Source of the DNA: an uncultured Dehalococcoidales bacterium
GTDB lineage: Bacteria > Chloroflexota > Dehalococcoidia > Dehalococcoidales > JAUVZE01
DNA: 24,000 nt
NCBI GenBank assembly: GCA_964572285.1
Contig: CAZNEL010000008.1
Span: forward strand, 9,064-33,063
Direction of reading: 5' to 3'
The position numbers were made by a program, and so were the translations under genes. Below the pieces are notes generated by a model. It did no database searches. It was not told the DNA's origin and saw only the letters and a program-made list of their open reading frames with translations. Below are positions 2,567 to 18,343 of the stretch, piece by piece (the first letter of the stretch is position 1; each line of letters begins with the position of its first letter).

Positions 2567-2810
2567 TACTGTTTTCCTTACCCTTTACAGGGAATTGCTT
2601 CTTATTTTCCCCTGACTCTGTCACCTGACTTTTACGATTATCCGTAATATAAAAGCCACTGCCCTTAAAGATAATAGGAACCGAGTGAATAACACGACGT
2701 GATTTTCCTTCACATTCGGGACACACTGCTACCGGTTCCTCGTCAAACCTTTGCCGTCTTTCAAAAAGACAATGGCAGGCTTCACACTCATACTCATAGA
2801 TAGGCACCAT
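2541..2810 (-). CDS. FmdB-family putative regulatory zinc-ribbon protein
   Basis: MVPIYEYECEACHCLFE...CPECEG is the FmdB/CxxC-CxxC zinc-ribbon signature. GAGGTGA SD lies upstream. The 3' end overlaps the dtd start by 26 nt (operon). Confidence 0.85.
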   Translation of the reverse strand: MVPIYEYECEACHCLFERRQRFDEEPVAVCPECEGKSRRVIHSVPIIFKGSGFYITDNRKSQVTESGENKKQFPVKGKENSSESATPAS

Positions 2811-2838
2811 TTCACCTCACAAAAGAATTCTCCTACAC

Positions 2839-2867
2839 ATTTTACCGTAGTAGCCCCACTAAGGCAA
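2839..2867 (-). promoter_or_regulatory. Putative sigma70-type promoter for the zinc-ribbon/dtd/GNAT operon
   Basis: On the minus strand: TTGCCT (2867-2862), 17-nt spacer, TAAAAT (2844-2839), about 30 nt upstream of the ATG at 2810. Confidence 0.4.
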
Positions 2868-3013
2868 ATTAGAAAATTGGTTACCAACTATCCCTTAGTC
2901 CTCTTTGCATAGAGGGCCCAGCGCAAATAGCGGCTGACTATGGGCTTGCGCCCATCTAGAAGAACCCCGCCTCTATCTATACAGAGTACACAGAGAGTGG
3001 AGGAGACTAAGAG

Positions 3014-3043
3014 TTGACACAGCTGTGCAATTATGATTAGAAT
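3014..3043 (+). promoter_or_regulatory. Putative sigma70-type promoter of the tubulin/FtsZ-like gene
   Basis: Consensus -35 TTGACA (3014-3019), 18-nt spacer, -10 TAGAAT (3038-3043). It sits just upstream of the ORF start (3061/3073). Confidence 0.5.
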
Positions 3044-3060
3044 AGTGCACCTGACTACTA

Positions 3061-4248
3061 TTGAGGTGTGCAGTGAAGTTAACGATTATAGGTTGTGGGC
3101 AGTGTGGCGGCCGGATTGCTGACGAGTTTGCCCTACTAGGCAAAGCAACACACGCTCAGCGCAAAATTGAAGCAGTTACTAACGTCTTAGCTATCAACAC
3201 AGATATTGCCGATTTGAGTGGACTATCTCATATAGGGTCCGATTACCAGCACAGGATTCTCATCGGGTCCCAGAAAACAGGGGGCCATGGTGTGGGTAAA
3301 ATGAATGAGGTGGGGGCTGAAGTCGCCAGAGAAGATGGCGACAAGGTCTTGGAAAGTGTCAGCCAAACACACCGCTTTTTTGAGACAGACGCATTCCTGG
3401 TAATTGCCGGTGCTGCCGGCGGAACCGGCTCCGGAGCTCTGCCGGTAATAACACAACTCTTAAAAGAGCGTTATATCCACAAACCGGTATATAACCTGAT
3501 AGTTCTCCCCTTTAGATATGAAGAGATGACCGAGGAAAGGTCTATTTATAATGTAGGCACCTGCCTTAAATCTTCCTACCTGATTGCCGACGCTGTATTT
3601 TTGGTTGATAATCAAAGATTTATTAAAAAAAACGTACCTATTAGTAACAACCTGGCTAAAATAAACTATCAGGTAGTTAAGCCCTTTTATAACCTGCTCT
3701 GCGCCGGAGAAGAGATAAACTCCAAATATATCGGGTCAAAGGTGCTTGATGCCGGAGACATCATACAGACTCTGGCCGGATGGTCGGTCATTGGCTATGG
3801 CGAAGTAAAGCTACCACGGATCAGGCTTCTCGGTGAAGACAAGATTCACTTTAGGGACAAAGTTTCTGGCACCCAAAAGGGAGCCCAGGCGATGGATAAA
3901 GCCATCGGCGAGTTATCGCTCAAGTGCAACGCTGCCGATGCCAGAAGAGCCCTGTATCTCCTGACAGGACCACCTGAAGAAATGAGCATGGATCTGATAA
4001 ACGAACTCTCATCCTCTTTAAAGAATATAGCTACCGAGGCTATAATACGGAGTGGTGATTATCCCAGGGATAAGGGCTTATTGAGTGTTACCGTTGTTCT
4101 ATCTGACCTTGTTAACTCAAGGAAAGTGATGGGGTATTTTACTAAAACTATCAATTATATCTCTCTTACCAGGAGAAGGCGTGGAGAGACAGAGCATGAA
4201 CACAGAGGAATTGACGAGGTTTTCAAAGACATACCCTCATTACTGTAA
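3061..4248 (+). CDS. Divergent tubulin/FtsZ-superfamily GTPase (CetZ/tubulin-like motifs with an FtsZ-like C-terminal peptide)
   Basis: Start uncertain: TTG 3061, or GTG 3073 after GAGGTG. Motifs by residue number from 3061: IGCGQCGG (10-17, T1, GQxG type); GGHGVGKMNEVGAEVARED (74-92); AGGTGSG (119-125, tubulin-signature-like); FLVDNQRF (180-187); LDAGDI (229-234, T7-like DxxD); C-terminal DEVFKDIPSLL. Confidence 0.85.
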   Translation: MRCAVKLTIIGCGQCGGRIADEFALLGKATHAQRKIEAVTNVLAINTDIADLSGLSHIGSDYQHRILIGSQKTGGHGVGKMNEVGAEVAREDGDKVLESVSQTHRFFETDAFLVIAGAAGGTGSGALPVITQLLKERYIHKPVYNLIVLPFRYEEMTEERSIYNVGTCLKSSYLIADAVFLVDNQRFIKKNVPISNNLAKINYQVVKPFYNLLCAGEEINSKYIGSKVLDAGDIIQTLAGWSVIGYGEVKLPRIRLLGEDKIHFRDKVSGTQKGAQAMDKAIGELSLKCNAADARRALYLLTGPPEEMSMDLINELSSSLKNIATEAIIRSGDYPRDKGLLSVTVVLSDLVNSRKVMGYFTKTINYISLTRRRRGETEHEHRGIDEVFKDIPSLL

Positions 4249-4298
4249 TTAACCAACCTAAAGCCATATACAAAATGCGCCAGTAAACCCGGGCTTAC

Positions 4299-4760
4299 TT
4301 ACTTTGCCTTATCACCGTGGAAAATCTTCCAGGTTTGCTCTGAAGTTTCTCTCGAAATATTCCAGGCTTGCTCTATGGCTTCCTTACGCTCCCCTAGCAC
4401 TTGCCTTACACTCTCCTGGTAAACATCCACGGCTTTTTCTCTGGCCTTCTTATATGCTTCTTCGGCTTCGAACTCAGCCTTTTGACGATCTTTCAAAGCC
4501 TGCCCCAAAGTCTCTTCGCAGATAGTATCAGCCTTCTGTTCAGCTACTTTATAAAGCTTCTCCCTTTGCCTTTCTCTTTCCCGATAAGCTGTAGCTGCCT
4601 TTCTTTGAGCTTCCACATAGGCTGTTTGAGCTATCTCAAGTTGTCCCAGAACTTCACTAAAAGGGTCAGTAATTTGCTCAGGAACCATAGTTTCCGGTTC
4701 CAAGGATTGCTCTTCTGTTTGTTTAACAGCCCTTTTTATCTGTTCCTTTTCACTGACCAT
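4299..4760 (-). CDS. Hypothetical coiled-coil protein (153 aa, charged, phasin/apolipoprotein-like composition)
   Basis: Track ORF is 4299..4811 (GTG). I prefer ATG 4760 (MVSEKEQIK...), which has GGAGGT 8 nt upstream. Highly charged A/E/K/R/Q-rich sequence predicted helical. No family recognised. Confidence 0.6.
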   Translation of the reverse strand: MVSEKEQIKRAVKQTEEQSLEPETMVPEQITDPFSEVLGQLEIAQTAYVEAQRKAATAYRERERQREKLYKVAEQKADTICEETLGQALKDRQKAEFEAEEAYKKAREKAVDVYQESVRQVLGERKEAIEQAWNISRETSEQTWKIFHGDKAK

Positions 4761-4885
4761 GAAAAAATACCTCCACAAATCCTGATTCCCAACTTTATTT
4801 ACCAGTAACACATTTTAAAACCGGTTGCTGTCCACCGCAATAGTATATGCTAATACAGCTTGTTGCCATACATACTTTTTTAAGT

Positions 4886-6631
4886 CTATTCATCCTCTTC
4901 CTCCTCTTCCTCAAAACCCCGGTCCTTATTAGACGCATACATCTTGGCCAAGTACTTCAAACGGGTATCCATCCTTCTCTTAACATCCCTGGCTTCTTTA
5001 TCTTTATTTATGTCAACCTCTGCTATGTTTAGTGATTCACCAAAGGTCCTTGCCAACGACTCGGCTTTATCCTCGAAAGCTTCATCTGCTTCCTCACAAT
5101 TGACGTCATCTACCCGGGGTATATTCATCGTGATATCGGCAGCTTGCTTGGCTATCTGTTTACCAGTTTTATCTATTTTACCAGTGCCGCCCATTAATTC
5201 CTGAAATGCCCTTACTGACATCTCTGCCGCTTCTGCAGTTGCTCTTTTGGATGCTTCAGTAGCTTCCTTGCTCGCCCTTACCGATTCTTTAGCAGCCTTC
5301 TTAGCCGATTCGCTCACCTTCTCAGCCCTACTTATTGTTTCCTGTGATGCCCTTATTGATTGTTCAGCTGCTTCCTGGGCTGATTTACTTGCTTCCTCAG
5401 CCCTGCTTATTGCTTCCTGTGATGCCTTCATCCACGCCATAGCACTCGCTGTTGTCGTCTGGCTTATTTCCTGAGCTTTAGCAATAGCGTCTTGTGATGC
5501 TTTTATTGAGATCTCAGCAGTATCGTTAGCCGCTCTTATCGATTGCTCAGTCACCTCCCGGGCTGATTTACTTGCTTCCTCAGCCCTGCTTATTGCGTCT
5601 TGTGATGCTCTTATTGATTCTGCAGCCATTTCCCTGGCTGTCTTGCCTGTCTCCTCAGCCCCACCCGCCGCTTCTTCAGCTAATCTCCTCGCTTCTTCCG
5701 CAGTTTCCTTGGCTGAGTTCCCTGCTTCCTCGGCCTTAGAGATAGCTTCCCGTGATACCCGTATTGATTCCTCAGCCATTTCCTTGGCCAGTTTTATAGA
5801 TTGTTCAGCCGCCACCCAGGCTGATTTTCCTGCCTCCTCAGCCTTTATCGCCATTTGTGCAGATACCGTTGTTGCTGCTTCAACGGCTGCTTTGGCTGAC
5901 TCACCTGCTTTCTCAGCACTAGTTATTGCTTTCTCAAAGTTTTTTTTGTATGCCTTAGCCGTCTCATCAGCCGATTTAGTTGCTTTCTCAGCCCTTCGTA
6001 CTGCTTCCTGCGATGCCTTTGTTGTTAACTCAGCCATATCTTTAGTCTGTCTGCTTGCTTCCTCAGCCCTGCTTCTAGCATCCTGTGATATTCTTATCGA
6101 TATCTCAGCTGCCTCCTTGGCAGCTATACTTGTCTTTTCAGCCCGGTTTATTGCTTCCTGTGATATTCTTATTGATTGCTCAGCTGTCTCCTTGGCAGAT
6201 TTTGCTGTTCTCTCAGCTTCATGTACTGCTTCCGCAAACGTTGAGACCAGGGCTTCAGTAATTTCTTTAGTTGATTTTATCGTCTCTTCAGCCCTGCCTA
6301 TCGCTTCCTCAAAGGTTCTCTTCAACGCCTCAGCCATCTCCTCAGCCGATTTGCATACCTCCTCGGCCTTGGCCACTGCTTCTTGCGATGTTCTCGATGC
6401 TGATTTAGCCGTCTCTTTTGCCCGTTTGCCTACCTCCTCAGCCCTGTTTATCGCCTCCTGTGATACTCTTATCGATGTCTCAGCAGCCTCCCTGGCTAAT
6501 TCACCCAGTTTCTCAGCCCTGGCTACCGTTCCCTCAAACGTTCCGGTATCGCACGCTGTGCTCTCTAGAACTTCAGAGGAGATGTTGTCTAGTGTTCCGA
6601 CCTCAGGAGATTTAACTTTTCTACTACCCAT
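4886..6631 (-). CDS. Large Ala/Glu/Ser/Lys-rich tandem-repeat protein (25-residue repeats) with acidic C-terminal tail
   Basis: 581-aa ORF. ATG 6631 has AGAGGT upstream. Residues 38-482 form about 16.5 repeats with consensus RAEEAxKSAKETAEQSIRxSQEAIx. The C-terminal 99 aa are non-repetitive and end FEEEEEEDE. Antisense ORFs exist but are Cys/Ser/Leu-rich shadows. Confidence 0.7.
   Translation of the reverse strand: MGSRKVKSPEVGTLDNISSEVLESTACDTGTFEGTVARAEKLGELAREAAETSIRVSQEAINRAEEVGKRAKETAKSASRTSQEAVAKAEEVCKSAEEMAEALKRTFEEAIGRAEETIKSTKEITEALVSTFAEAVHEAERTAKSAKETAEQSIRISQEAINRAEKTSIAAKEAAEISIRISQDARSRAEEASRQTKDMAELTTKASQEAVRRAEKATKSADETAKAYKKNFEKAITSAEKAGESAKAAVEAATTVSAQMAIKAEEAGKSAWVAAEQSIKLAKEMAEESIRVSREAISKAEEAGNSAKETAEEARRLAEEAAGGAEETGKTAREMAAESIRASQDAISRAEEASKSAREVTEQSIRAANDTAEISIKASQDAIAKAQEISQTTTASAMAWMKASQEAISRAEEASKSAQEAAEQSIRASQETISRAEKVSESAKKAAKESVRASKEATEASKRATAEAAEMSVRAFQELMGGTGKIDKTGKQIAKQAADITMNIPRVDDVNCEEADEAFEDKAESLARTFGESLNIAEVDINKDKEARDVKRRMDTRLKYLAKMYASNKDRGFEEEEEEDE
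5186..6520 (-). repeat. Degenerate 75-nt tandem coding repeat (14 units of 25 codons, 2 units of 36 codons, 1 partial)
   Basis: Counted by hand between xAE(E/K) anchors: spacings are 25 residues, except two of 36 (25+11). At DNA level, strings such as gcttcctcagccctgcttattgc..cctgtgat recur (e.g. near 5391, 5574, 6055). Confidence 0.8.
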
Positions 6632-6649
6632 AACTTTGTACCTCTGCCT

Positions 6650-6678
6650 ATTCTACAATAGGTTGTTTAGTTTATCAA
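6650..6678 (-). promoter_or_regulatory. Putative sigma70-type promoter of the repeat-protein gene
   Basis: On the minus strand: TTGATA (6678-6673), 17-nt spacer, TAGAAT (6655-6650). The predicted transcript start would leave only a very short leader before ATG 6631, which weakens the call. Confidence 0.35.
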
Positions 6679-6985
6679 TAGTCATTTCTTGGCTCAAGGT
6701 TTATGCCCACATGTATGAGTAATGCTGTGGGAAACAATCAGGCCACAATGTTAAGCACTACGGTTCACCCCACATGCACGAAGAACAATATTCATTCCCA
6801 GTTCATTAATTGGATAGGGAACTGCTGCGCTACAGAGCAAACTTAGTTAAGATACAAACTACAATAAAGAACGAGACCCATATCTGGAGGAACCATTGCC
6901 GTGGGTAATGACAACACATTTTTCAATGTCCGTCGTTTCCTACATCCTATCTCTTATTCTTCTTACTATAATTATTTGTCTGAAG

Positions 6986-7978
6986 TTAACCCATAATCAA
7001 GGACAGAATCGCCTTTTCAGTATGGAGCCGATTCTCGGCTTCATCGTAGATAACAGACATAGGACCGTCTACTACCTCGGCCGTGGCTTGCATTCCCCTT
7101 CGTAAGGGCATACAGTTCATAAAGATAGCATTCTTAGCAGCAATATCAAAATGCCTCTCATTAATACACCAGCTAGCAAACGGCTCACGTAATTTTGCAT
7201 CTTCATCTTTGTTTGAAACTGACCCCCAGTAGGTAGCTAGAATGACATCGGCATCCTCGCAGGCTTCATCAAGACTACTTGTTATCTCTATTGTCGCCCC
7301 AGACTGCTCAGCCCGCCTTTTAGCCTCGTCCATATATTTCGAGTCCAAATCAAACCCGGGCGGGTAAGCAAAAGTCAGGTGCATCCCTAAGGTAGCTCCG
7401 GCTAAAGCTGTACTGTGAGCCATTCCCGGGCTTACCCAGTGGTTATATTGTACCCAAGGAACCGCTATCTTCTTTTTCTTAAAATCAGAGCCAAGCTTTT
7501 CCATTATGGTCATGATATCTGCCATCGTTTGGCAAGGGTGCTCCTCGTCATCAAGGGCATTAACCAGCGGTATACTAGCATTATCAGCCATTAACTCTAG
7601 GGTCTGACGACACTCACCATACTTCAACGTGGGGAACGGTGCTGGCAACCGAGCGAGGCGAACTACCAACCCGTTCAGGTAGCGGGAGAAAACCTGGGCA
7701 GTATCAACCCAGTTTTCCGATAGATGGCCCTGTATCGTTTCAATACCGAAATATTGAGCATGCCCACCTAATTGAGACATCGCCGTTTCAAAAGATGCTC
7801 GCGTTCTGGTGGATGGGCTACAGAACAGCATACCTAAATTCTTACCCGCTAAAAGGGGGGTGGGTTCCCCGCTGGCCAATTTCATCTTCAAGTCAAATGC
7901 CAGATTTAGAATCGTCTCCAAGTCTTCCCTGGAATAATCCAGCAAGGTTAAGAAATCTCTGCCCTTTAGTTTATTCAT
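6986..7978 (-). CDS. Aspartate/ornithine carbamoyltransferase-superfamily protein, atypical second-substrate motifs
   Basis: SPSTRTR (carbamoyl-phosphate site) and HPCQ are present, and the C-terminal AENRLHTEKA is OTC-like. However, the OTC SMG-loop (DxxxSMG) and HCLP motifs are replaced (TYWGSVS, NCMPLRRG), and there is an insertion (RLPAPFPTLKYGECRQ). AAGGAGG SD. Last gene of the TRAP operon. Confidence 0.85.
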   Translation of the reverse strand: MNKLKGRDFLTLLDYSREDLETILNLAFDLKMKLASGEPTPLLAGKNLGMLFCSPSTRTRASFETAMSQLGGHAQYFGIETIQGHLSENWVDTAQVFSRYLNGLVVRLARLPAPFPTLKYGECRQTLELMADNASIPLVNALDDEEHPCQTMADIMTIMEKLGSDFKKKKIAVPWVQYNHWVSPGMAHSTALAGATLGMHLTFAYPPGFDLDSKYMDEAKRRAEQSGATIEITSSLDEACEDADVILATYWGSVSNKDEDAKLREPFASWCINERHFDIAAKNAIFMNCMPLRRGMQATAEVVDGPMSVIYDEAENRLHTEKAILSLIMG

Positions 7979-9938: not shown

Positions 9939-11050
9939 CTAAATGCGCCCCAAGCCTGTGAGGTAATCCTTGTAAACTTGAGCACCTCTAGCAAAATAAT
10001 CGTCGGTGCTAGCTTTCTGGTCAAGATAATATAAGGATCTCTCCCTGAACTTAGCGATTGTCTCATCAGTCCATATTGACTTGGTGACCCCGTAGTTCTG
10101 CGACATGTCTTCCCAAGCTGCCATGTCGTCCTGATAGAAGGCGGCATAATAGTGAACAAAAGCCTCCTCACCAGCCATATCAAGGATAGTCTTGAGGTCA
10201 TCAGGCAAAGAGTTATAAAGTTCTAGGTTGATAAGAAAGCCGGTGCCAAGTATGGGCAAATCTGGCGGCAATACATAGTATTGACATACTTCATGAAGCC
10301 CAAAGTCATAGAAGTCAGCTAGAGGACTCCAGCAGCAAGCGTCAATTACGCCAGTAGCCAGCGCAATGTAAATCTCCTCAGCAGGGACTTGAACCACAGA
10401 ACCTCCTAGCTCTTCGTAGATATTCCCGAGTGTGCCGAAGGTCCTTATCTTGAGCCCTTTTACATCACTTTCCTTTGTTAATTCCTTGGTTGACATCATG
10501 TCCCGTAGTAGGGACCGGTATGGTAGGCGATGTAGTGTAGATTATGTTCGGCGTAAGCCTCCCTCATAACATCGTTAAGGCCAAAGTTCCTTTGCAGGGT
10601 GAGAAATTCAGGAATACTCTCTAAAAGCCACGGCCAGCCGAATAACAGCTCAGCTGAGGGTATCGAACCCATGTCATAGGTGCTAGAACTGTAACCCATC
10701 TCAATTATCCCTTCTCCGACAGCTCCGTGGACTTCAAAGCTGGGTACTAACTCACCGGCGGCGAAGTGCTTGATCTGGATACGCCCGCCAGATGCCTGTT
10801 CGACCGCCTTAATATAGGGCTCAGTACGCTCGACATAGCTGGTACTCCCGGCAGGAGCATAATCCTGGAGTTTCCATTGATAGACCTCCGCTGTCGGGGA
10901 CGGTGCTGGTGTAGGACTTGGGCTTGGCGATGGAGATGGCGTTGGAGACGGCGTCGGTGCCGGCGTCGGTGCCGGTGCAGCACAAGCTGCCAAAAGAAGC
11001 GAAGTTCCTAATACTAAAGCAAGTAAAACAGTTAAAATCCTCGCTTTCAA
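9939..11050 (-). pseudogene. dctP: TRAP substrate-binding lipoprotein split by a frameshift into 10496..11050 and 9939..10499
   Basis: The N-terminal fragment starts at TTG 11050 (AAGGAGG 8 nt upstream): MKARILTVLLALVLGTSLLLAAC lipobox, then a Pro/Thr/Ser-rich linker, ending ...HTGPYYGT*. The C-terminal fragment starts MMSTKELTKESDVKGLKIR... in the -1 frame with an ATGA overlap. One extra base in the C3 run at 10502-10504 would restore ...GPYYGDMMSTKEL... Confidence 0.7.
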
Positions 11051-11238
11051 TTTGATAACCTCCTTATAAAATTTAGTCAACCGGGTATTTAATATAATCA
11101 CCTCATTGCTCACCTCCTATCTTAATACTCATTGGCCTTCTGTCCTAGTCATTCAGACAAGCCTCCTAGCATCACAGCAATACAAAAATAGAACTATACA
11201 GCTTGTCAATACATAGTCAGACATAGTTTTGAAATTAA

Positions 11239-12075: not shown

Positions 12076-13089
12076 ATGACCACAGATAAGGAAAAGGCAC
12101 TAGAGTTAGCTATAAGCCAAATCGAAAAGCATTTTGGCAAAGGTTCCATCATGAAGCTGGGTGAAGCAGCTGTTGCTTCACCAGTAGATAGTATATCCAC
12201 CGGGTCACTGGCCTTAGACTTGGCCTTAGGCATTAATGGTATCCCCAAGGGACGGATTGCTGAAATATTTGGTCCTGAATCATCGGGGAAAACCACCTTG
12301 GGTCAGCATATAATTGCTGAGGCGCAGAAACGAGGCGGCTTGGCTGCCTATATTGACGTGGAGCATGCGTTAGATCCCGCCTATGCTGCTAACTGTGGTG
12401 TCAAAATTGATGACTTGCTTATCTCACAACCGGATACGGGGGAGCAGGCACTGGAGATTACCGAGGCACTGGTCAGAAGCGGTGCTATTGATGTAATCGT
12501 AATTGATAGTGTCGCTGCCTTGGTGCCCCGGGCTGAAATCGAGGGGGAGATGGGCGATACTCATGTTGGCTTGCAAGCCCGCTTAATGTCACAAGCATTA
12601 AGAAAACTGGCAGCCGCTATTGGCAAATCAGGGACAGCGGTAATATTCATAAATCAGTTGCGAGAAAAGGTAGGTATCGTTTTTGGTAATCCTGAGGTAA
12701 CACCAGGTGGCAGGGCCCTTAAATTTTATAGCTCGGTACGGATAGACTTGAGACGAATTGAAACTCTTAAGCAAGGAAATGAAGCAGTAGGTAACCGCGT
12801 CAGAGCTAAGGTGGTCAAAAATAAAGTTGCCCCTCCATTTAAAAGTGCCGAGTTCGATATAATGTTCGGCCATGGGATAAGCAGAGAGGGTGACCTTATC
12901 GACCTTAGTGTAGAACGGGAAATAGTAAAAAAGACTGGAGCCTTTTTCTCATTTGGTGACATTCGCCTGGGGCAGGGAAGGGAAAATGCCAAGAAATATC
13001 TAAGTGAACATCCCGAGCTTGGCCAAGAAATTGAGCAGCAACTTAAAGCCTCAGCCGTCACCAACTATTATCCTGTCAACAATGATTGA
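12076..13089 (+). CDS. recA: Recombinase RecA
   Basis: The Walker [24 protein letters not shown] and the rest of the sequence are unmistakably RecA. 337 aa. Confidence 0.98.
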
Positions 13090-13137
13090 TTAGCACCTTT
13101 AATACGTTAGGTTAATAGCTGATGATAATAAGTAAGG

Positions 13138-13167
13138 CTGGGGCGTAGGCTCCAGTTTTTGTATTTT
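13138..13167 (+). terminator. Possible partial intrinsic terminator between recA and recX
   Basis: 7-bp stem (13138-13144 pairs with 13149-13155, one G.U) with a GTAG loop, followed by TTTTTGTATTTT. recX starts 30 nt later with its own SD. Confidence 0.45.
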
Positions 13168-13195
13168 AAAGGGTACAATAAAAAAGGTAGCGGCA

Positions 13196-13822
13196 ATGAG
13201 TAAGATTACTGCACTGCATATTGGGAAGAGGCAGCAGAAACGAGTAAATATGTTCCTGGATGGCAGGTTTGCTTGTGGCCTGGAAGCTGAAGTAGTCATA
13301 AAAGAGAGTTTACAGGTTGGGCAAGAGCTATCAGCTAGTCAGATTGAAGCGCTAACCAAGTTGAATCACTTTCACCGCTGCCTTAATGCTGCTACTCACT
13401 ACCTTGGCTACCGACCCCGGAGTGAGTTTGAGGTAAAGGAGCGACTTCTGCGGCGAGGCTTTGATGATAATACCATAGAGGCGGTGATAGTCAATCTGAA
13501 AGAGCAGGGGCTAGTAGATGACATGGCATTTGCTCAATTCTGGAAGGAAAACCGGGACTCGTTTAGCCCTCGCAGCCAGTGGCTAACTAAGTTAGAGCTA
13601 AGACAAAAGAGGATAGCTGACGACATCACAGGCCAAGTAATCAAGACTATTGATGATGACGATAGCGCTTATCGAGCAGCCCTGAGTAAAGCCCGCAATC
13701 TACCCCGGGCTGATTACCCGGGTTTTCAGCGCCGATTGGGTGCATACCTTAAGCGACGCGGTTTTAGTTACGAAATTATTAACAATACTATTAAACGACT
13801 TTGGTCGGAAAGGAGAGATTAG
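13196..13822 (+). CDS. recX: Recombination regulator RecX
   Basis: Immediately downstream of recA. YLGYRPRSEFEVKERLLRRGFDDNTIEAVIVNLKEQGLVDDMAFAQFW shows the RecX three-helix repeat pattern. Confidence 0.9.
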   Translation: MSKITALHIGKRQQKRVNMFLDGRFACGLEAEVVIKESLQVGQELSASQIEALTKLNHFHRCLNAATHYLGYRPRSEFEVKERLLRRGFDDNTIEAVIVNLKEQGLVDDMAFAQFWKENRDSFSPRSQWLTKLELRQKRIADDITGQVIKTIDDDDSAYRAALSKARNLPRADYPGFQRRLGAYLKRRGFSYEIINNTIKRLWSERRD

Positions 13823-13871
13823 AACCAAATAGTCCCTACAGAGGTGGAGGCTAAAAGAAAGGGAGAGATAA

Positions 13872-15410
13872 ATGGAAGTAATAGGATATTTAGCAATTTT
13901 CTTTAGCTTCATTATAGGCATCACGTTCGGAGGGATGGCTGTCTTCCTGGGACGGAGGACAATAATTAACCGTCAGCTCCGTATTGCCCAAAGAAAAGCC
14001 AGCAGAATGGTGACTGATGCCAGCCTTGAGGCTAAAGATATACTCCATGAGGCTAAACAGGAAGCGGTAAAGGTTAAAGCAGCAACGGACACCGAACATC
14101 GAGAGTCGCGAGCCGATTTGCAACGACAAGAAAACCGCCTAGCTCAGAAAAACGATACCTTAGAGCACAAGCTAGAGGCCGTAGAACACCGAGAACGCAA
14201 TCTACTCAACAAAGAAAAGGAGATAGATTCTACACAAGCTCACCTTGGTGAAATTAAAGATAAGCAGTTAAAGCAGCTGGAGCTAATTTCAGGCATGACG
14301 AGTACCGAGGCGAAAGATTCGCTATTGGCAGCTATGGAGGTTGAGATAAAGGAGGAGGCTTCTCGGCGTCTTCGGCAATGGGATGCTAAGTTAAAAGAGG
14401 AAGCCGATATGAAAGCCCAAGAGATCCTGTCACAGGCTATCCAGCGTTCTGCCTCTGAAATTGTATCGGAAACGACGGTTTCCGCTGTTCCCCTCCCCAG
14501 TGATGAGATGAAGGGTCGGCTTATCGGACGAGAAGGCCGCAACATCAGAGCTTTGGAGCAAGCTACCGGTGTTGACCTAATTATTGATGACACCCCCGAA
14601 GCAGTGACTCTATCCAGCTTCGACCCGGTGCGACGGGAGATAGCCCGCGTAGCGTTAAACAAACTTATCCTGGATGGTCGTATCCATCCGGCTCGTATTG
14701 AAGAAGTAGTAGCCAAAGCTAAAGAGGAAGTAGAGGCTACTATGCAGACTGCCGGAGAGCAGGCAGCGTATCAGGTGGGAGTACCCGGACTACGCCCCGA
14801 GTTAATAAAAATACTCGGTCGACTTAAATATAGGACCAGCTATGGTCAGAACGTCTTAGCGCATAGCATTGAGACAGCTCACCTATCTGGTATGATAGCT
14901 ACCGAACTAGGCGCCAACCCTGCCATAGCCAAGAAAGCCGGACTCCTTCATGACATTGGTAAAGCAGTAGACCGCGAAGTGGAAGGGACTCACGCTGCTA
15001 TTGGTGCCGACCTGGTTAAGCAATGGGACAAATCTTCTGAGGTGGCTCAAGCCGTTGCTGAACACCACGGTGAGTCCGGCACTACTAGTATCTTGGGTTT
15101 TATCGTCGCTGCTGCTGATGCCATCAGTAGTGCCAGACCTGGAGCCAGACGTGAGTCTTTAGAGAACTACCTAAAGCGTCTAGAGGCACTGGAGTCTATC
15201 GCCAATGGCTTCAAGGGAGTGGAGAAATCCTTTGCTATCCAGGCCGGTCGTGAAATCCGCATTTTGGTCAAGCCAGAAGAGATTGATGATTTAGGGTCAA
15301 TGAGACTTGCCCGAGATATTGTTAAGAAGATAGAGGAGGGTATGGACTACCCCGGTCAGATAAAAGTAACCGTACTCAGAGAAACAAGAGCCGTAGATTA
15401 TGCTAGGTAG
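13872..15410 (+). CDS. rny: Ribonuclease Y
   Basis: N-terminal TM helix, coiled coil, KH domain ([15 protein letters not shown]) and HD domain (HSIETAHL...LLHDIGKA). 512 aa. Confidence 0.97.
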
Positions 15411-15421
15411 GAGGTATGAAA

Positions 15422-15464
15422 AAGAAGGAAAGACAGATCTTGGTGAAGTAGTTCTTTCCTTCTT
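15422..15464 (+). other. Intercistronic stem-loop between rny and the ymdB-like gene
   Basis: Perfect 12-bp purine/pyrimidine stem (aagaaggaaaga 15422-15433 pairs with tctttccttctt 15453-15464) with a 19-nt loop. No T-run follows. It ends 9 nt before the GTG start at 15474. Confidence 0.4.
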
Positions 15465-15473
15465 AAAGAACCA

Positions 15474-16241
15474 GTGCAAATATTAATGATTGGTGATATA
15501 ATTGGCAGACCTGGCCGGCAGGCGATAAGAGAGCTTCTACCAAACCTCCGGCAGCAATATGGGCTAGATTTGGTTATTGCTAACGCGGAGAATGTCGCCG
15601 GAGGTTTCGGTTTGACTCTAGCCACGGCTATGGAACTACTGAATGCTGGTGTTGATGTGCTGACCTCAGGTAATCATATCTGGGCTCAGCAGGAAATCAT
15701 CTCCCACCTTGACGGAGATATGCCAATCCTGCGTCCACTAAATTATCCCTCCGGAGTGCCCGGTAGGGGATATCTAGTCAACAGGCAGACTATGGTGGTC
15801 AATTTGATCGGCCGAACCTTTATGGGTGATGTTGATTGCCCATTTAGGGCTATTGACCAACTACTAAACGAGGGTAAGCACAAGCCACGGGTTATAATTG
15901 TTGATTTCCACGCTGAGGCAACATCCGAGAAGATAGCCATGGGGCACTACCTTGATGGACGTGTCAGTGCAGTGTTGGGCACCCATACTCATGTAGGAAC
16001 TACCGACACACGGCTATTCCCTCAAGGGACGGCCTATGTTACCGATGTAGGTATGACTGGCCCTATTGATTCGGTAATCGGTATGGAAACTGACGTGATA
16101 ATTCAGCGCTTCCTCACTGGAATACCTCATCGGATGTCCGTAGCCAAAGGTAGAACAATGTTTAACGCAGTATCAGTAAGAATCGATGAGCGCAGTGGGC
16201 GGGCAACAAGCATCGACCGAATTTATAAGGAGGTAAGATAG
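15474..16241 (+). CDS. ymdB: YmdB-like metallophosphoesterase (TIGR00282-type 2',3'-cyclic-nucleotide phosphodiesterase)
   Basis: GTG start. (M)QILMIGDIIGRPGR..., NAENVAGGFG, DFHAEATSEK and GTHTHV are calcineurin-like phosphoesterase motifs. Conserved position downstream of rny. Confidence 0.9.
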   Translation: MQILMIGDIIGRPGRQAIRELLPNLRQQYGLDLVIANAENVAGGFGLTLATAMELLNAGVDVLTSGNHIWAQQEIISHLDGDMPILRPLNYPSGVPGRGYLVNRQTMVVNLIGRTFMGDVDCPFRAIDQLLNEGKHKPRVIIVDFHAEATSEKIAMGHYLDGRVSAVLGTHTHVGTTDTRLFPQGTAYVTDVGMTGPIDSVIGMETDVIIQRFLTGIPHRMSVAKGRTMFNAVSVRIDERSGRATSIDRIYKEVR

Positions 16242-16244
16242 TAA

Positions 16245-17096
16245 TTGTCCAGGGTTGACCTCCATATCCATTCCACCGCTTCTGATGGTCGCCTTAGTCC
16301 AGCAGAGGTCGTCCGCCAAGCGGCAAAGAATGGGTTAAGCGTTATTGCTATCACCGACCACGACACCATAGATGGGATTGCCTCAGCCCTGATAACAGCC
16401 AAAGGCTTCCCTGGGCTCGAAGTTATACCCGGTATTGAACTGAGCACTTATGTACCTCAAGGTGAAGTCCATATTCTCGGCTACTTCATAGATTATAATG
16501 ACCATGAGTTTCAAGCCATTTTAGAAGGATTACGCAACTCCCGAATCAAGCGGGCTCAAGAAATGGTTGCTAAACTGAAGAAGTTGGATATCAATATTGA
16601 CTGGAAACGGGTTAAAGAAATAGCTGGAGAAGGCTCTATCGGGCGCCCCCATATCGCTCAAGCCATGCTGGAAAAAGGCTATATCAGCTCACTGAAGGAG
16701 GCCTTTGACAAGTATATCAGCCGTGATGGCCCGGCCTACGTTGAGCGGGAAAAGATGACCCCGGTTGAAGCAGTAGAGTTAATCATTAAGTTTAACGGGC
16801 TGTCAGTGTTAGCCCACCCATTCACTTCCAATAACACCAGGACGCTGGTTGCTGAGCTGAAGATAGCCGGCCTAGTAGGCATTGAGACCTATTACAAGGA
16901 CTATACTACCGATAATATTAATGAGCTGATTGGCCTTGCTGATAAGTATGGTCTTATTACCACCGGCGGTACTGACTACCACGGGCTAAAACCCGCCAGT
17001 GAAACTATAATTGGCGGTGTCGATGTGCCAATGGAATCTGTAGAACGCCTTATAGCCTTAGCTAAAGACCGAGCACTAAACCTGACCGGTCTATAG
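16245..17096 (+). CDS. PHP-domain phosphoesterase (TrpH/YciV-like)
   Basis: VDLHIHSTASDG...ITDHDT... are the PHP metal-binding His/Asp motifs. TTG start with AAGGAGG upstream. Confidence 0.85.
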   Translation: MSRVDLHIHSTASDGRLSPAEVVRQAAKNGLSVIAITDHDTIDGIASALITAKGFPGLEVIPGIELSTYVPQGEVHILGYFIDYNDHEFQAILEGLRNSRIKRAQEMVAKLKKLDINIDWKRVKEIAGEGSIGRPHIAQAMLEKGYISSLKEAFDKYISRDGPAYVEREKMTPVEAVELIIKFNGLSVLAHPFTSNNTRTLVAELKIAGLVGIETYYKDYTTDNINELIGLADKYGLITTGGTDYHGLKPASETIIGGVDVPMESVERLIALAKDRALNLTGL

Positions 17097-17120
17097 AAAG
17101 CAATTTCAACGGAGGTTCCG

Positions 17121-17861
17121 GTGGCTATCGAGTTTGGGCTATTAATCATAGGTGCCTATCTTTTAGGTTCGGTGCCATTCGCTTACTTGGCGGCTAAGTG
17201 GTCCCGAGGGATAGACATCAGGCAATACGGCAGCGGCAATATCGGAGCCAGTAATGTACTGAGGACAACTTCAAAGTGGCTTGCTATTCCGGTTACTATC
17301 TTCGATATCGGCAAGGGTATATTAGCCGTGTGGGTAGCTCAACTAATAGGCCTCGGGACTATGGAACAGGTAGTAGTAGGTTTAGCGGCGATAGTAGGAC
17401 ATAACTGGTCTGTCTTTTTACGTTTTCAGGGAGGGCGTGGTATTTTTACTAGCCTGGGCGTTATTCTCATTCTATCACCCGTAATAGGACTAATAATGAT
17501 AGTCATAGCTTACTCTTTAGCTCTATTTCGAAAGCTATCTCTAGGTGTTCTTATAGCACTGGGCTCTTTGCCAATACTGAGTTGGTTTCTCAGCCAGCCA
17601 TTTGGTATTGAGGATAAGCTAACCATTACGCTAGGTTATCTCGCTATACTGTTAATAGCTTTATTCAGACGATTAACAGCACCACGTACCTCAGTTACAG
17701 CGTCAGTGAGTACCAGGCGATTACTGGTCAATCGCCTGCTCTTCGACCGTGATATAATAGACCGGGAAGCTTGGATACATCGGACACCGCTCCAGACTGG
17801 TTCGGCAGAACAAACCCCTGGACAAGAGGAAAAAAAAGGAAAGGATCCTCAGATAAGATGA
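17121..17861 (+). CDS. plsY: Glycerol-3-phosphate acyltransferase PlsY with a roughly 50-aa hydrophilic C-terminal extension
   Basis: GSGNIGASNVLRT and GHNWSVFLRFQGGRG are PlsY signature motifs. GTG start 5 nt after GGAGG. Confidence 0.92.
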   Translation: MAIEFGLLIIGAYLLGSVPFAYLAAKWSRGIDIRQYGSGNIGASNVLRTTSKWLAIPVTIFDIGKGILAVWVAQLIGLGTMEQVVVGLAAIVGHNWSVFLRFQGGRGIFTSLGVILILSPVIGLIMIVIAYSLALFRKLSLGVLIALGSLPILSWFLSQPFGIEDKLTITLGYLAILLIALFRRLTAPRTSVTASVSTRRLLVNRLLFDRDIIDREAWIHRTPLQTGSAEQTPGQEEKKGKDPQIR

Positions 17862-18343
17862 AGTGTGCCACTCACCCTCAGGTTGAAACTAATCTCAGGT
17901 GTGGTAAATGTGGTAAACCTATATGTCCCAAGTGCATGGTGCAGACTCCAGTGGGAGCCCGATGCCTGGATTGTGCTCGGCTATACAAGCTACCTACCTA
18001 TCGTGTCTCTACTCAATACTACCTGCGAGCTGCTGGAACAGGACTAGGTATGGCGATTGTTTGCGGCACTATCTGGAGTGTGATAGGAAATTTCGTGCCG
18101 TTCTTTTATCTTAACTTACTAATAGCCCCCGGCATTGGCTACGCTATCGGAGAGGTAATTGGCCTGTCAGTTAACCGTAAGCGCGGCACCGGCTTAGCCA
18201 TTGTTGCCGGAGCCGCTGTGGTAATAAGCTACCTGGTGAGCATTCTACTACCCTTGGGGTTCCCTCTAGGTTTATTTAATATCGTTTTTGACCTGATAGC
18301 CCTAGGCCTAGGTATCTGGATTGCCATAACACGGTTACGTTAA
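17858..18343 (+). CDS. B-box zinc-finger membrane protein
   Basis: Track ORF starts at 17771. I prefer ATG 17858, which overlaps the plsY stop (ATGA). MKCATHPQVETNLRCGKCGKPICPKCMVQTPVGARCLDCAR is a Cys/His B-box-like cluster followed by about 4 predicted TM helices. Confidence 0.75.
   Translation: MKCATHPQVETNLRCGKCGKPICPKCMVQTPVGARCLDCARLYKLPTYRVSTQYYLRAAGTGLGMAIVCGTIWSVIGNFVPFFYLNLLIAPGIGYAIGEVIGLSVNRKRGTGLAIVAGAAVVISYLVSILLPLGFPLGLFNIVFDLIALGLGIWIAITRLR

Follow-up and report, generated by a model that had tools for sequence, protein, structure and literature searches.

A CetZ-family GTPase with a conserved repeat-protein neighbour in Dehalococcoidia bacteria: a probable non-division cytoskeleton

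The DNA analysed here (the window) is a stretch of 24,000 nucleotides from contig CAZNEL010000008.1 of an uncultured Dehalococcoidales bacterium (Chloroflexota), and its subject is a forward-strand gene whose product, judged by its sequence and modelled fold, is a CetZ-family GTPase of the tubulin/FtsZ superfamily. Among the prokaryotic branches of the tubulin superfamily, CetZ (Duggin et al. 2015) is the third major one. The gene, its control elements and its domains are as follows.

3014..3043, forward strand: sigma-70-like promoter match, TTGACA-18 nucleotides-TAGAAT, 11 of 12 consensus positions
3063..3068, forward strand: Shine-Dalgarno-like GAGGTG, 4 nucleotides before the GTG at 3073
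3073..4248, forward strand: CetZ-type tubulin/FtsZ-superfamily GTPase gene, 391 amino acids plus stop
3079..3627, forward strand: Tubulin/FtsZ GTPase domain (PF00091), Pfam match above threshold
3646..4131, forward strand: CetZ C-terminal domain (PF21011), Pfam match above threshold

The reading frame 3061..4248 (+) was confirmed, with the same translation as that quoted in a preliminary description made from the sequence; only its start has to be moved, since translation probably begins with GTG at position 3073 and not with TTG at 3061. This start is preferred because three lines agree on it: GAGGTG lies just upstream, the resulting N-terminus MKLTIIG... fits the M/V-K-L start and the 391-residue length of nearly all homologues, and the N-terminus of CetZ1 from Haloferax volcanii is in agreement as well. 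Residue numbers are counted from this GTG. The gene is monocistronic, since both flanking genes lie on the opposite strand, a divergent zinc-ribbon gene ending at 2810 (-) and a convergent gene with its stop at 4299. The promoter match is the strongest of sigma-70-like type within 2700-7000; as a match to the consensus only, it marks a putative promoter. The monocistronic arrangement behind a near-consensus promoter, as initially described, therefore stands, the function of the promoter being putative. The ratio of nonsynonymous to synonymous substitution rates (dN/dS) of the gene relative to its orthologues is 0.08-0.15. No fts, mur or min genes were found in the 24 kb of the window, in line with the initial placement of the gene outside any division cluster.

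Both parts of the protein are recognised by Pfam. Tubulin (PF00091) is matched with 114.3 bits against a cut-off of 33 (E=1.1e-32) and CetZ_C (PF21011) with 69.8 bits against a cut-off of 21.6 (E=2.7e-19), and this pair of domains is annotated in all close homologues. In a phmmer sequence search of the Protein Data Bank (PDB), the best match was H. volcanii CetZ1 (HVO_2204; 4b46), with an E-value of 2.6e-43 over residues 6-353 and 34% identity. H. volcanii CetZ2 (4b45) and Methanosaeta CetZ (3zid) were found at 5.4e-31 and 4e-16, FtsZs at 1e-15 to 1e-5 (the best at 4e-15), and Asgard/Odin tubulins and TubZ at 1e-6 to 1e-3. A first AlphaFold model, built on 42 close homologues, had a predicted local distance difference test score (pLDDT) of 56 and was discarded; the AlphaFold2 model from an alignment of 111 sequences covering two subfamilies reached a pLDDT of 88.9 and a predicted template modelling score (pTM) of 0.90. 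When this model was compared with the PDB by Foldseek, three CetZ structures took the top three ranks (the top four chains being CetZ), above every FtsZ. CetZ1 aligns with the predicted two-domain fold with a template modelling (TM) score of 0.93 and a root-mean-square deviation (rmsd) of 1.9 Å, and FtsZ shows about 20% identity to the model in structural alignments. The CetZ fold was thus recovered by modelling, and together with the Pfam and PDB matches it bears out the earlier proposal of a divergent tubulin/FtsZ-superfamily GTPase of CetZ type.

Other members of the superfamily were considered and rejected. FtsZ shares the superfamily fold with the window protein and presumably also the GTP-dependent polymerisation chemistry. 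However, the FtsZ equivalog TIGR00065 (NCBIfam) scores 64.5 bits against a cut-off of 295.2, FtsZ_C (PF12327) gives no Pfam match at E<=0.1, the T1 loop reads GCGQCGG rather than GGGxGxN, and the gene is located outside a dcw/ftsA context, in an order that keeps a separate canonical ftsZ (PMC10608941). TubZ was rejected since Tubulin_2 (PF13809) stays below its cut-off, with 20 bits against 27, and neither a TubR adaptor nor a centromere is present among the neighbours. Tubulin, BtubAB and artubulin were rejected on the grounds that Tubulin_C gives no Pfam match and that the Asgard/Odin tubulin structures are reached only at 1e-5 to 1e-6. A spurious open reading frame (ORF) was considered and rejected too, the Pfam and 4b46 E-values being far past chance.

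The motifs of the protein were placed by alignment to the solved structure of H. volcanii CetZ1 (4b46), with the following result.

3091..3111, forward strand: T1 loop GCGQCGG (residues 7-13), aligned to CetZ1 GFGQAGG
T3/H3 loop: GHGVGKMNEVGAEVARED in the window protein, GHGVGADNELGAEIAEED in CetZ1
3415..3435, forward strand: T4 signature AGGTGSG (residues 115-121), aligned to CetZ1 GGGTGSG
3748..3759, forward strand: T7 loop DAGD (residues 226-229), LDAGDI aligned to CetZ1 VDSSEI
3811..3858, forward strand: M-loop region KLPRIRLLGEDKIHFR (residues about 247-262), aligned to the CetZ1 M-loop

The T1, T3/H3, T4, T6/H7 and T7 motifs quoted in the preliminary description are all present and fall on the expected loops of CetZ1. 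In the T3/H3 segment, GGHGVGKMNEVGAEVARED of the window protein matches KGHGVGADNELGAEIAEED of CetZ1, and in T6/H7 LVDNQ stands opposite VFDND. The loop positions of these motifs are unchanged in the 111 homologues from two subfamilies; G7, G9, Q10 and G12 of T1, the whole of T4 from A115 to G121, and D226, G228 and D229 of T7 are invariant. D229 aligns with the catalytic Glu218 of CetZ1, and the E218A mutant of CetZ1 gives hyperstable polymers (bioRxiv 10.1101/2024.04.08.588506). As had been claimed, all GTP-binding loops (T1-T6) are preserved together with the catalytic acid of T7, and because this catalytic anatomy is conserved, the window protein looks like a competent polymerising GTPase.

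Most of these features are shared with the CetZ family at large, namely a T1 loop of the GxGQxGG type, the GGTGSG of T4 and an acidic residue at the position of Glu218. Compared with CetZ1, the window protein differs in its Cys-rich T1 loop, in having an aspartate instead of a glutamate at the catalytic T7 position, and in its M-loop, which is about 10 residues shorter than that of CetZ1 and has a conserved LPRIRLPF...FR consensus (LPRIRL(L/P)F). Residues 252-261 are the sole low-confidence stretch of the AlphaFold2 model. In the CetZ1 subfamily, the M-loop is long (14-26 residues) and has a hydrophobic tip.

The C-terminal end of the protein was described at first as an FtsZ-like tail on a CetZ core. 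It is composed of two elements.

4171..4212, forward strand: charged linker RRRRGETEHEHRGI (residues 367-380), contains TRRRRG; pLDDT lower at 371-380
4213..4245, forward strand: conserved C-terminal tail DEVFKDIPSLL (residues 381-391), analogous to CetZ1 ...LESLF

The C-terminal anchor-binding peptide of bacterial FtsZ, D-I-P-x-F-L, binds FtsA, ZipA or SepF, and DIPSLL does resemble it; the same type of motif is, moreover, found in archaeal CetZs. Within the subfamily of the window protein the tail is nearly invariant (...RGI(E/D)E(A/V)FKDIPSLL), and on either side of the tree numerous distant relatives have endings of the D-[IL]-[PDE]-x-L-[LF] type, one of them a protein labelled as Bathyarchaeia. 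CetZ1 likewise ends in a conserved hydrophobic tail, ...LESLF, which is essential for rod formation (bioRxiv 10.1101/2024.04.08.588506). Given the tail of CetZ1 and the endings of the distant relatives, a short conserved hydrophobic tail after a charged linker is a CetZ-type feature, although DIPSLL and LESLF differ in sequence; the tail is the family's own, and neither a graft from FtsZ nor the mosaic is upheld. A PDB search with the tail alone gave no match. The likeness of the CetZ tail to the FtsZ peptide is plausibly ancestral, because CetZ has been argued to derive from archaeal FtsZ (Santana-Molina et al. 2023, PMC9871819).

In a neighbour-joining tree of full-length representatives and the three solved CetZs, two groups are separated with 99% bootstrap. 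For the group of the window protein, a look-up of 20 sequences gave a taxon label for only two, each of them Dehalococcoidia; the Haloferax and Methanosaeta proteins fall into the other group, in which the labels are Nitrososphaerales, Thermococci and Bathyarchaeia. When the tree was rooted with Escherichia coli FtsZ and Methanocaldococcus jannaschii FtsZ1, both checked against the PDB, the bacterial clade of the window protein was monophyletic in 96 of 100 replicates, which sets it apart from the archaeal CetZs, and the clade together with the archaeal CetZs was separate from FtsZ in all 100. The protein therefore does not lie inside FtsZ; it belongs, however, to an already described family, and this weakens the novelty claimed in the preliminary description. 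The boundary of 'canonical' CetZ drawn by Brown and Duggin is the Thermococcales node. CetZ-like 'tubulin/FtsZ family' proteins from Nitrososphaerales (Thaumarchaeota) metagenome-assembled genomes (MAGs), in the clusters of P0152, P0156 and P0166, are among the archaeal sequences closest to the bacterial clade; they are outside the usual Euryarchaeota range of CetZ.

The clade itself is subdivided. A second Dehalococcoidia subfamily, typified by locus L017, has a T1 loop GFGQCG and a tail ...VPSLF and shares about 52% identity with the window protein. Four metagenome loci retrieved with the repeat protein described below (L031, L036, L038 and L042) have CetZ-like genes in tandem, two or three per locus; the window type is represented by the copy adjoining the partner genes, and the second copy is L018-like and ends in GKDIP[ST]LL. 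In L038 there are three CetZ-like copies, one of them just 39% identical to the window protein. The presence of several paralogues in some genomes recalls the multiple CetZs of haloarchaea, and heteropolymers are a possibility.

The host of the gene is bacterial, the gene belonging to a Dehalococcoidia chromosome, because genes for RecA, RecX, RNase Y, YmdB, PlsY, D-Tyr-tRNA deacylase (Dtd) and a TRAP transporter are present in the window too, and because, of 18 genome loci, 17 come from MAGs assigned to Dehalococcoidia, Dehalococcoidales or Dehalococcoidaceae. These loci were obtained by scanning one genome per GTDB species and cover 52-99% identity; some of those in Dehalococcoidia are on contigs of 494-525 kb, such as the 494 kb CAYSJC010000001.1 and the 525 kb contig of P0113. 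Within the window, the run recA-recX-rny (RNase Y)-ymdB-PHP-plsY at 12076-17861 (+) serves as a bacterial taxonomic anchor. The remaining locus, L003, is a 2.5 kb contig (QMXQ01000207.1) binned as 'Candidatus Bathyarchaeota archaeon', with a 73%-identical protein annotated 'cell division protein FtsZ' and both partner genes. Since the same partner genes are present, L003 is probably a misbinned Dehalococcoidia contig.

The clade is also abundant. The close subfamily of the window protein comprises well over 100 clusters at 90% identity, and a HMMER search of 1.84 billion representatives at 50% identity returned 67 clusters at E<=1e-30, a number that rises to 266 at E<=1e-10. Some of the records already bear the label 'Tubulin-like protein CetZ', and many hits that carry a source name are annotated 'cell division protein FtsZ', which is misleading for these genes. 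CetZ specialists call the family archaea-specific, and their surveys covered archaea only. CetZ-like sequences in Chloroflexota-Dehalococcoidia were reported by Santana-Molina et al. 2023 (PMC9871819), with matches to a CetZ C-terminal profile hidden Markov model at about 1e-10, in one sentence that calls these groups 'sparse' and 'paraphyletic'; they are almost certainly the same group as the clade of the window. The existence of a bacterial CetZ clade had therefore already been noted, and the unusualness that the preliminary description saw in the protein does not hold. In contrast to the earlier wording, the clade is here abundant in metagenomes and monophyletic by neighbour-joining. Its abundance, its subfamilies, its tandem paralogues and its conserved repeat-protein partner appear to have been undescribed until now, the latter three having no place in PMC9871819.

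Downstream of the CetZ gene, and convergent with it, lie two genes that recur in the same position in related loci.

4299..4760, reverse strand: small helical protein, 153 amino acids, Glu/Ala/Lys/Gln-rich, convergent with the CetZ gene
4886..6631, reverse strand: partner repeat-protein gene, 581 amino acids, Ala/Glu/Ser/Lys-rich, convergent with the CetZ gene

The partner contains a 25-residue unit, RAEEAxKSAKExAEQSIRxSQEAIx, repeated about 17 times, and a conserved VFxELxSGxG segment; towards its C-terminus, an invariant R-L-x-x-L-x-x-M-[FY] precedes an acidic tail. An Ala/Glu/Ser/Lys-rich protein of 440-615 amino acids is encoded directly downstream and convergent in 16 of the 18 genome loci, and the partner is also present in L026 and L027, one of which is on a 494 kb contig. 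The upstream genes, unlike this downstream partner, differ among the loci. A reciprocal search of metagenomes with the full-length partner gave the same association, with a convergent CetZ-like gene in 13 of 15 loci; the contigs of the other two end too early to tell. The partner is under purifying selection (dN/dS = 0.26-0.32). Searches of Pfam, NCBIfam and the PDB returned only sub-threshold or designed-helical-bundle matches and no natural relative of it. From its composition and its 25-residue repeat, the partner may be a coiled coil.

The small helical protein, of about 155 amino acids in its homologues, lies between the CetZ gene and the partner gene in 5 of the 18 genome loci and in 11 of the 15 partner-seeded loci, and is under purifying selection as well (dN/dS = 0.125). 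Its ORF as listed runs to 4811, and the homologues begin at the methionine of MV(N/S)(Q/E)K; no relative was found in Pfam, NCBIfam or the PDB. The neighbours of archaeal tubulin-like genes often have coiled-coil regions (Santana-Molina et al. 2023, PMC9871819). Where archaeal cetZ neighbourhoods have been surveyed, they contain genes of cofactor and nucleotide biosynthesis, a sugar epimerase and the type IV pilus, whereas the bacterial clade has the repeat-protein neighbour; no dedicated partner of this kind is named in the CetZ papers considered.

More divergent relatives have other surroundings. The gene at 10001-11257 of L019-L021 (contigs of 74 kb, 106 kb and 1.25 Mb) encodes a divergent 418-residue CetZ-like protein of the P0147/P0297 cluster and is surrounded by resolvases, IS66 and IS605 transposases and a group II intron reverse transcriptase; the next gene, co-directional with it, encodes a protein of 324 amino acids with an N-terminal transmembrane segment and no Pfam match. 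In the P0121/P0272 subfamily, also from Dehalococcoidia (L024, 2250-3623 (-); L025, 3623-4996 (-)), a homologue of the phage terminase large subunit (Terminase_6C) is convergent downstream and stands in the place of the repeat protein.

How such a protein might be employed is suggested by the biology of its hosts. Dehalococcoidales and SAR202 have kept an adjacent mraZ-mraW-ftsA-ftsZ and lost the peptidoglycan genes, and Dehalococcoides mccartyi has an S-layer-like wall (PMC10608941). In D. mccartyi BTF08, an 'FtsZ/Tubulin GTPase', btf_0551, is distinct from FtsZ (btf_0595); btf_0551 and a hypothetical protein encoded nearby are abundant in the disc-shaped cells of pure cultures and were not quantified in the barrel-shaped cells of co-cultures (PMC8163811). 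As a second tubulin-superfamily gene besides ftsZ, in the same class and with a co-regulated hypothetical protein nearby, btf_0551 resembles the system of the window and is a candidate orthologue.

We propose that the window gene encodes a bacterial CetZ-branch GTPase which, with its conserved repeat-protein neighbour, forms a non-division, envelope-associated cytoskeleton, and we put the probability of this reading at roughly 0.7. A role outside division is likely because Dehalococcoidales keep ftsA-ftsZ, lack peptidoglycan and have an archaeal-like S-layer envelope. The protein would polymerise head-to-tail with GTP, as do CetZ1, FtsZ and tubulin, and GTP hydrolysis in the polymer would be triggered by Asp229 of the next subunit, which would complete the active site of its neighbour. 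The C-terminal peptide could dock a partner or the adjacent subunit, and the repeat protein could act as a filament-associated scaffold, a cross-linker or an envelope tether. Such a module would most likely serve cell shape or surface organisation, in analogy to the role of CetZ1 in the wall-less Haloferax, where the host is likewise devoid of a peptidoglycan wall.

Several observations weigh against this proposal. The link between the CetZ gene and the partner is one of synteny only, and the two genes are not co-transcribed because they are convergent. There is no clean heptad signal in the partner, whose hydrophobic periodicity is weak. The repeat partner is absent from L017 and L018, the two most divergent of the genome loci, and from more distant relatives, and the neighbours of divergent relatives are insertion-sequence/resolvase genes, a terminase or the nuo operon; the partnership, and perhaps the function too, may hence be specific to the subfamily. 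The membership of btf_0551 in the clade is putative, with no protein labelled as D. mccartyi or as any other cultured organism among the best 120 matches to each of the window, L017 and L016 proteins. Finally, the archaeal side of the tree was monophyletic in only 4 of 100 replicates, by neighbour-joining only, and for this reason the exact sister of the bacterial clade and the direction of any transfer are not fixed by that method.

A more far-reaching version is that a Dehalococcoidia CetZ module, made of one to three paralogues, the repeat protein and the small helical protein, shapes or organises the envelope of these bacteria, which are bounded by an S-layer and lack peptidoglycan, and was shared or exchanged with archaea along with an archaeal-like envelope. 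We regard this as tentative, and a good deal less probable than the cytoskeletal role as such. Transfers from archaea to Dehalococcoides have been proposed for other genes. If the far-reaching version is true, the module would be the first cell-shape system in bacteria to rely on a CetZ/tubulin-like polymer rather than on MreB and peptidoglycan.

Among the rival explanations, the one to be taken most seriously, though unlikely, is that the protein is an accessory or alternative division protein, a second FtsZ-like ring component suited to an envelope without peptidoglycan, comparable to archaeal FtsZ1 plus FtsZ2, with a DIPSLL tail that would engage FtsA or SepF. The resemblance of the tail to D-I-P-x-F-L speaks for it, as do the retention of FtsA by Dehalococcoidales and the second tubulin-like protein of D. 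mccartyi, which varies in abundance along with FtsZ. Yet the tail type is also found in archaeal CetZs, the protein belongs to the CetZ clade and not to FtsZ, no ftsA/ftsZ is nearby and no division genes are in the window, and work on the characterised CetZ1 has dealt with cell shape and motility, not with division. Still less probable, and in our view improbable by a wide measure, is a TubZ-like filament for DNA segregation or a mobile element, moving a plasmid, a prophage or a chromosomal locus. It would account for the divergent relatives in the same clade that sit amid resolvases, insertion-sequence elements and a group II intron reverse transcriptase (L019-L021), for the terminase large subunit adjoining the relatives in L024/L025, and for the weak matches to TubZ structures and Tubulin_2. 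But the window gene is among housekeeping genes, neither a TubR-like DNA-binding adaptor nor a centromere repeat is adjacent, the conserved neighbour is a repeat protein and not a DNA-binding one, and TubZ is matched at about 1e-4 to 1e-5, compared with 1e-43 for CetZ1, just as Tubulin_2 falls 7 bits short of its threshold.

The least likely alternative, which is effectively excluded, is an archaeal CetZ gene on a misassembled or misbinned contig. It could appeal to the literature that calls CetZ archaea-specific and to the related 2.5 kb contig L003 with its Candidatus Bathyarchaeota label. It is countered by the bacterial genes for RecA, RecX, RNase Y, PlsY and Dtd, which share one contiguous stretch of 24 kb with the CetZ gene, by the bacterial-type promoter match and the Shine-Dalgarno sequence, by the predominance of Dehalococcoidia loci, some on the long contigs mentioned above, and by the monophyly of the clade, distinct from archaeal sequences; L003 has the same partner genes, so it is L003 that is probably misbinned.

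In the specialist literature, CetZ is an archaea-specific family that shapes wall-less cells. An abundant, monophyletic and strongly conserved CetZ clade in bacteria with an S-layer-like envelope and no peptidoglycan would provide a test of whether CetZ filaments are a general solution to the shaping of wall-less cells. A tangible candidate for a protein associated with CetZ is offered by the conserved repeat-protein neighbour. Two further questions to which the clade is relevant are the exchange of genes between archaea and Dehalococcoidia and the way in which C-terminal tails evolved from FtsZ to CetZ.

Some minor observations concern the rest of the window. Antisense ORFs over 4944-6722 (+), up to 359 amino acids long and Ser/Ala/Leu-rich, were rejected as by-products of the repeat composition; at the repeat-protein gene, only the minus-strand frame is open at full length in other loci and called by gene finders. 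The TRAP solute-binding gene DctP (9939-11113, -) is split, with the ORF at 10496-11113 covering positions 8-113 of the profile and that at 9939-10499 covering 123-280, a pattern that points to a frameshift, a pseudogene or a sequencing error. An ORF of 190 amino acids at 17771-18343 (+) has a borderline B-box zinc-finger match (24.3 against 24.1 bits) and has about 90 nucleotides in common with the 3' end of plsY, so that its start codon, or the ORF itself, is doubtful.

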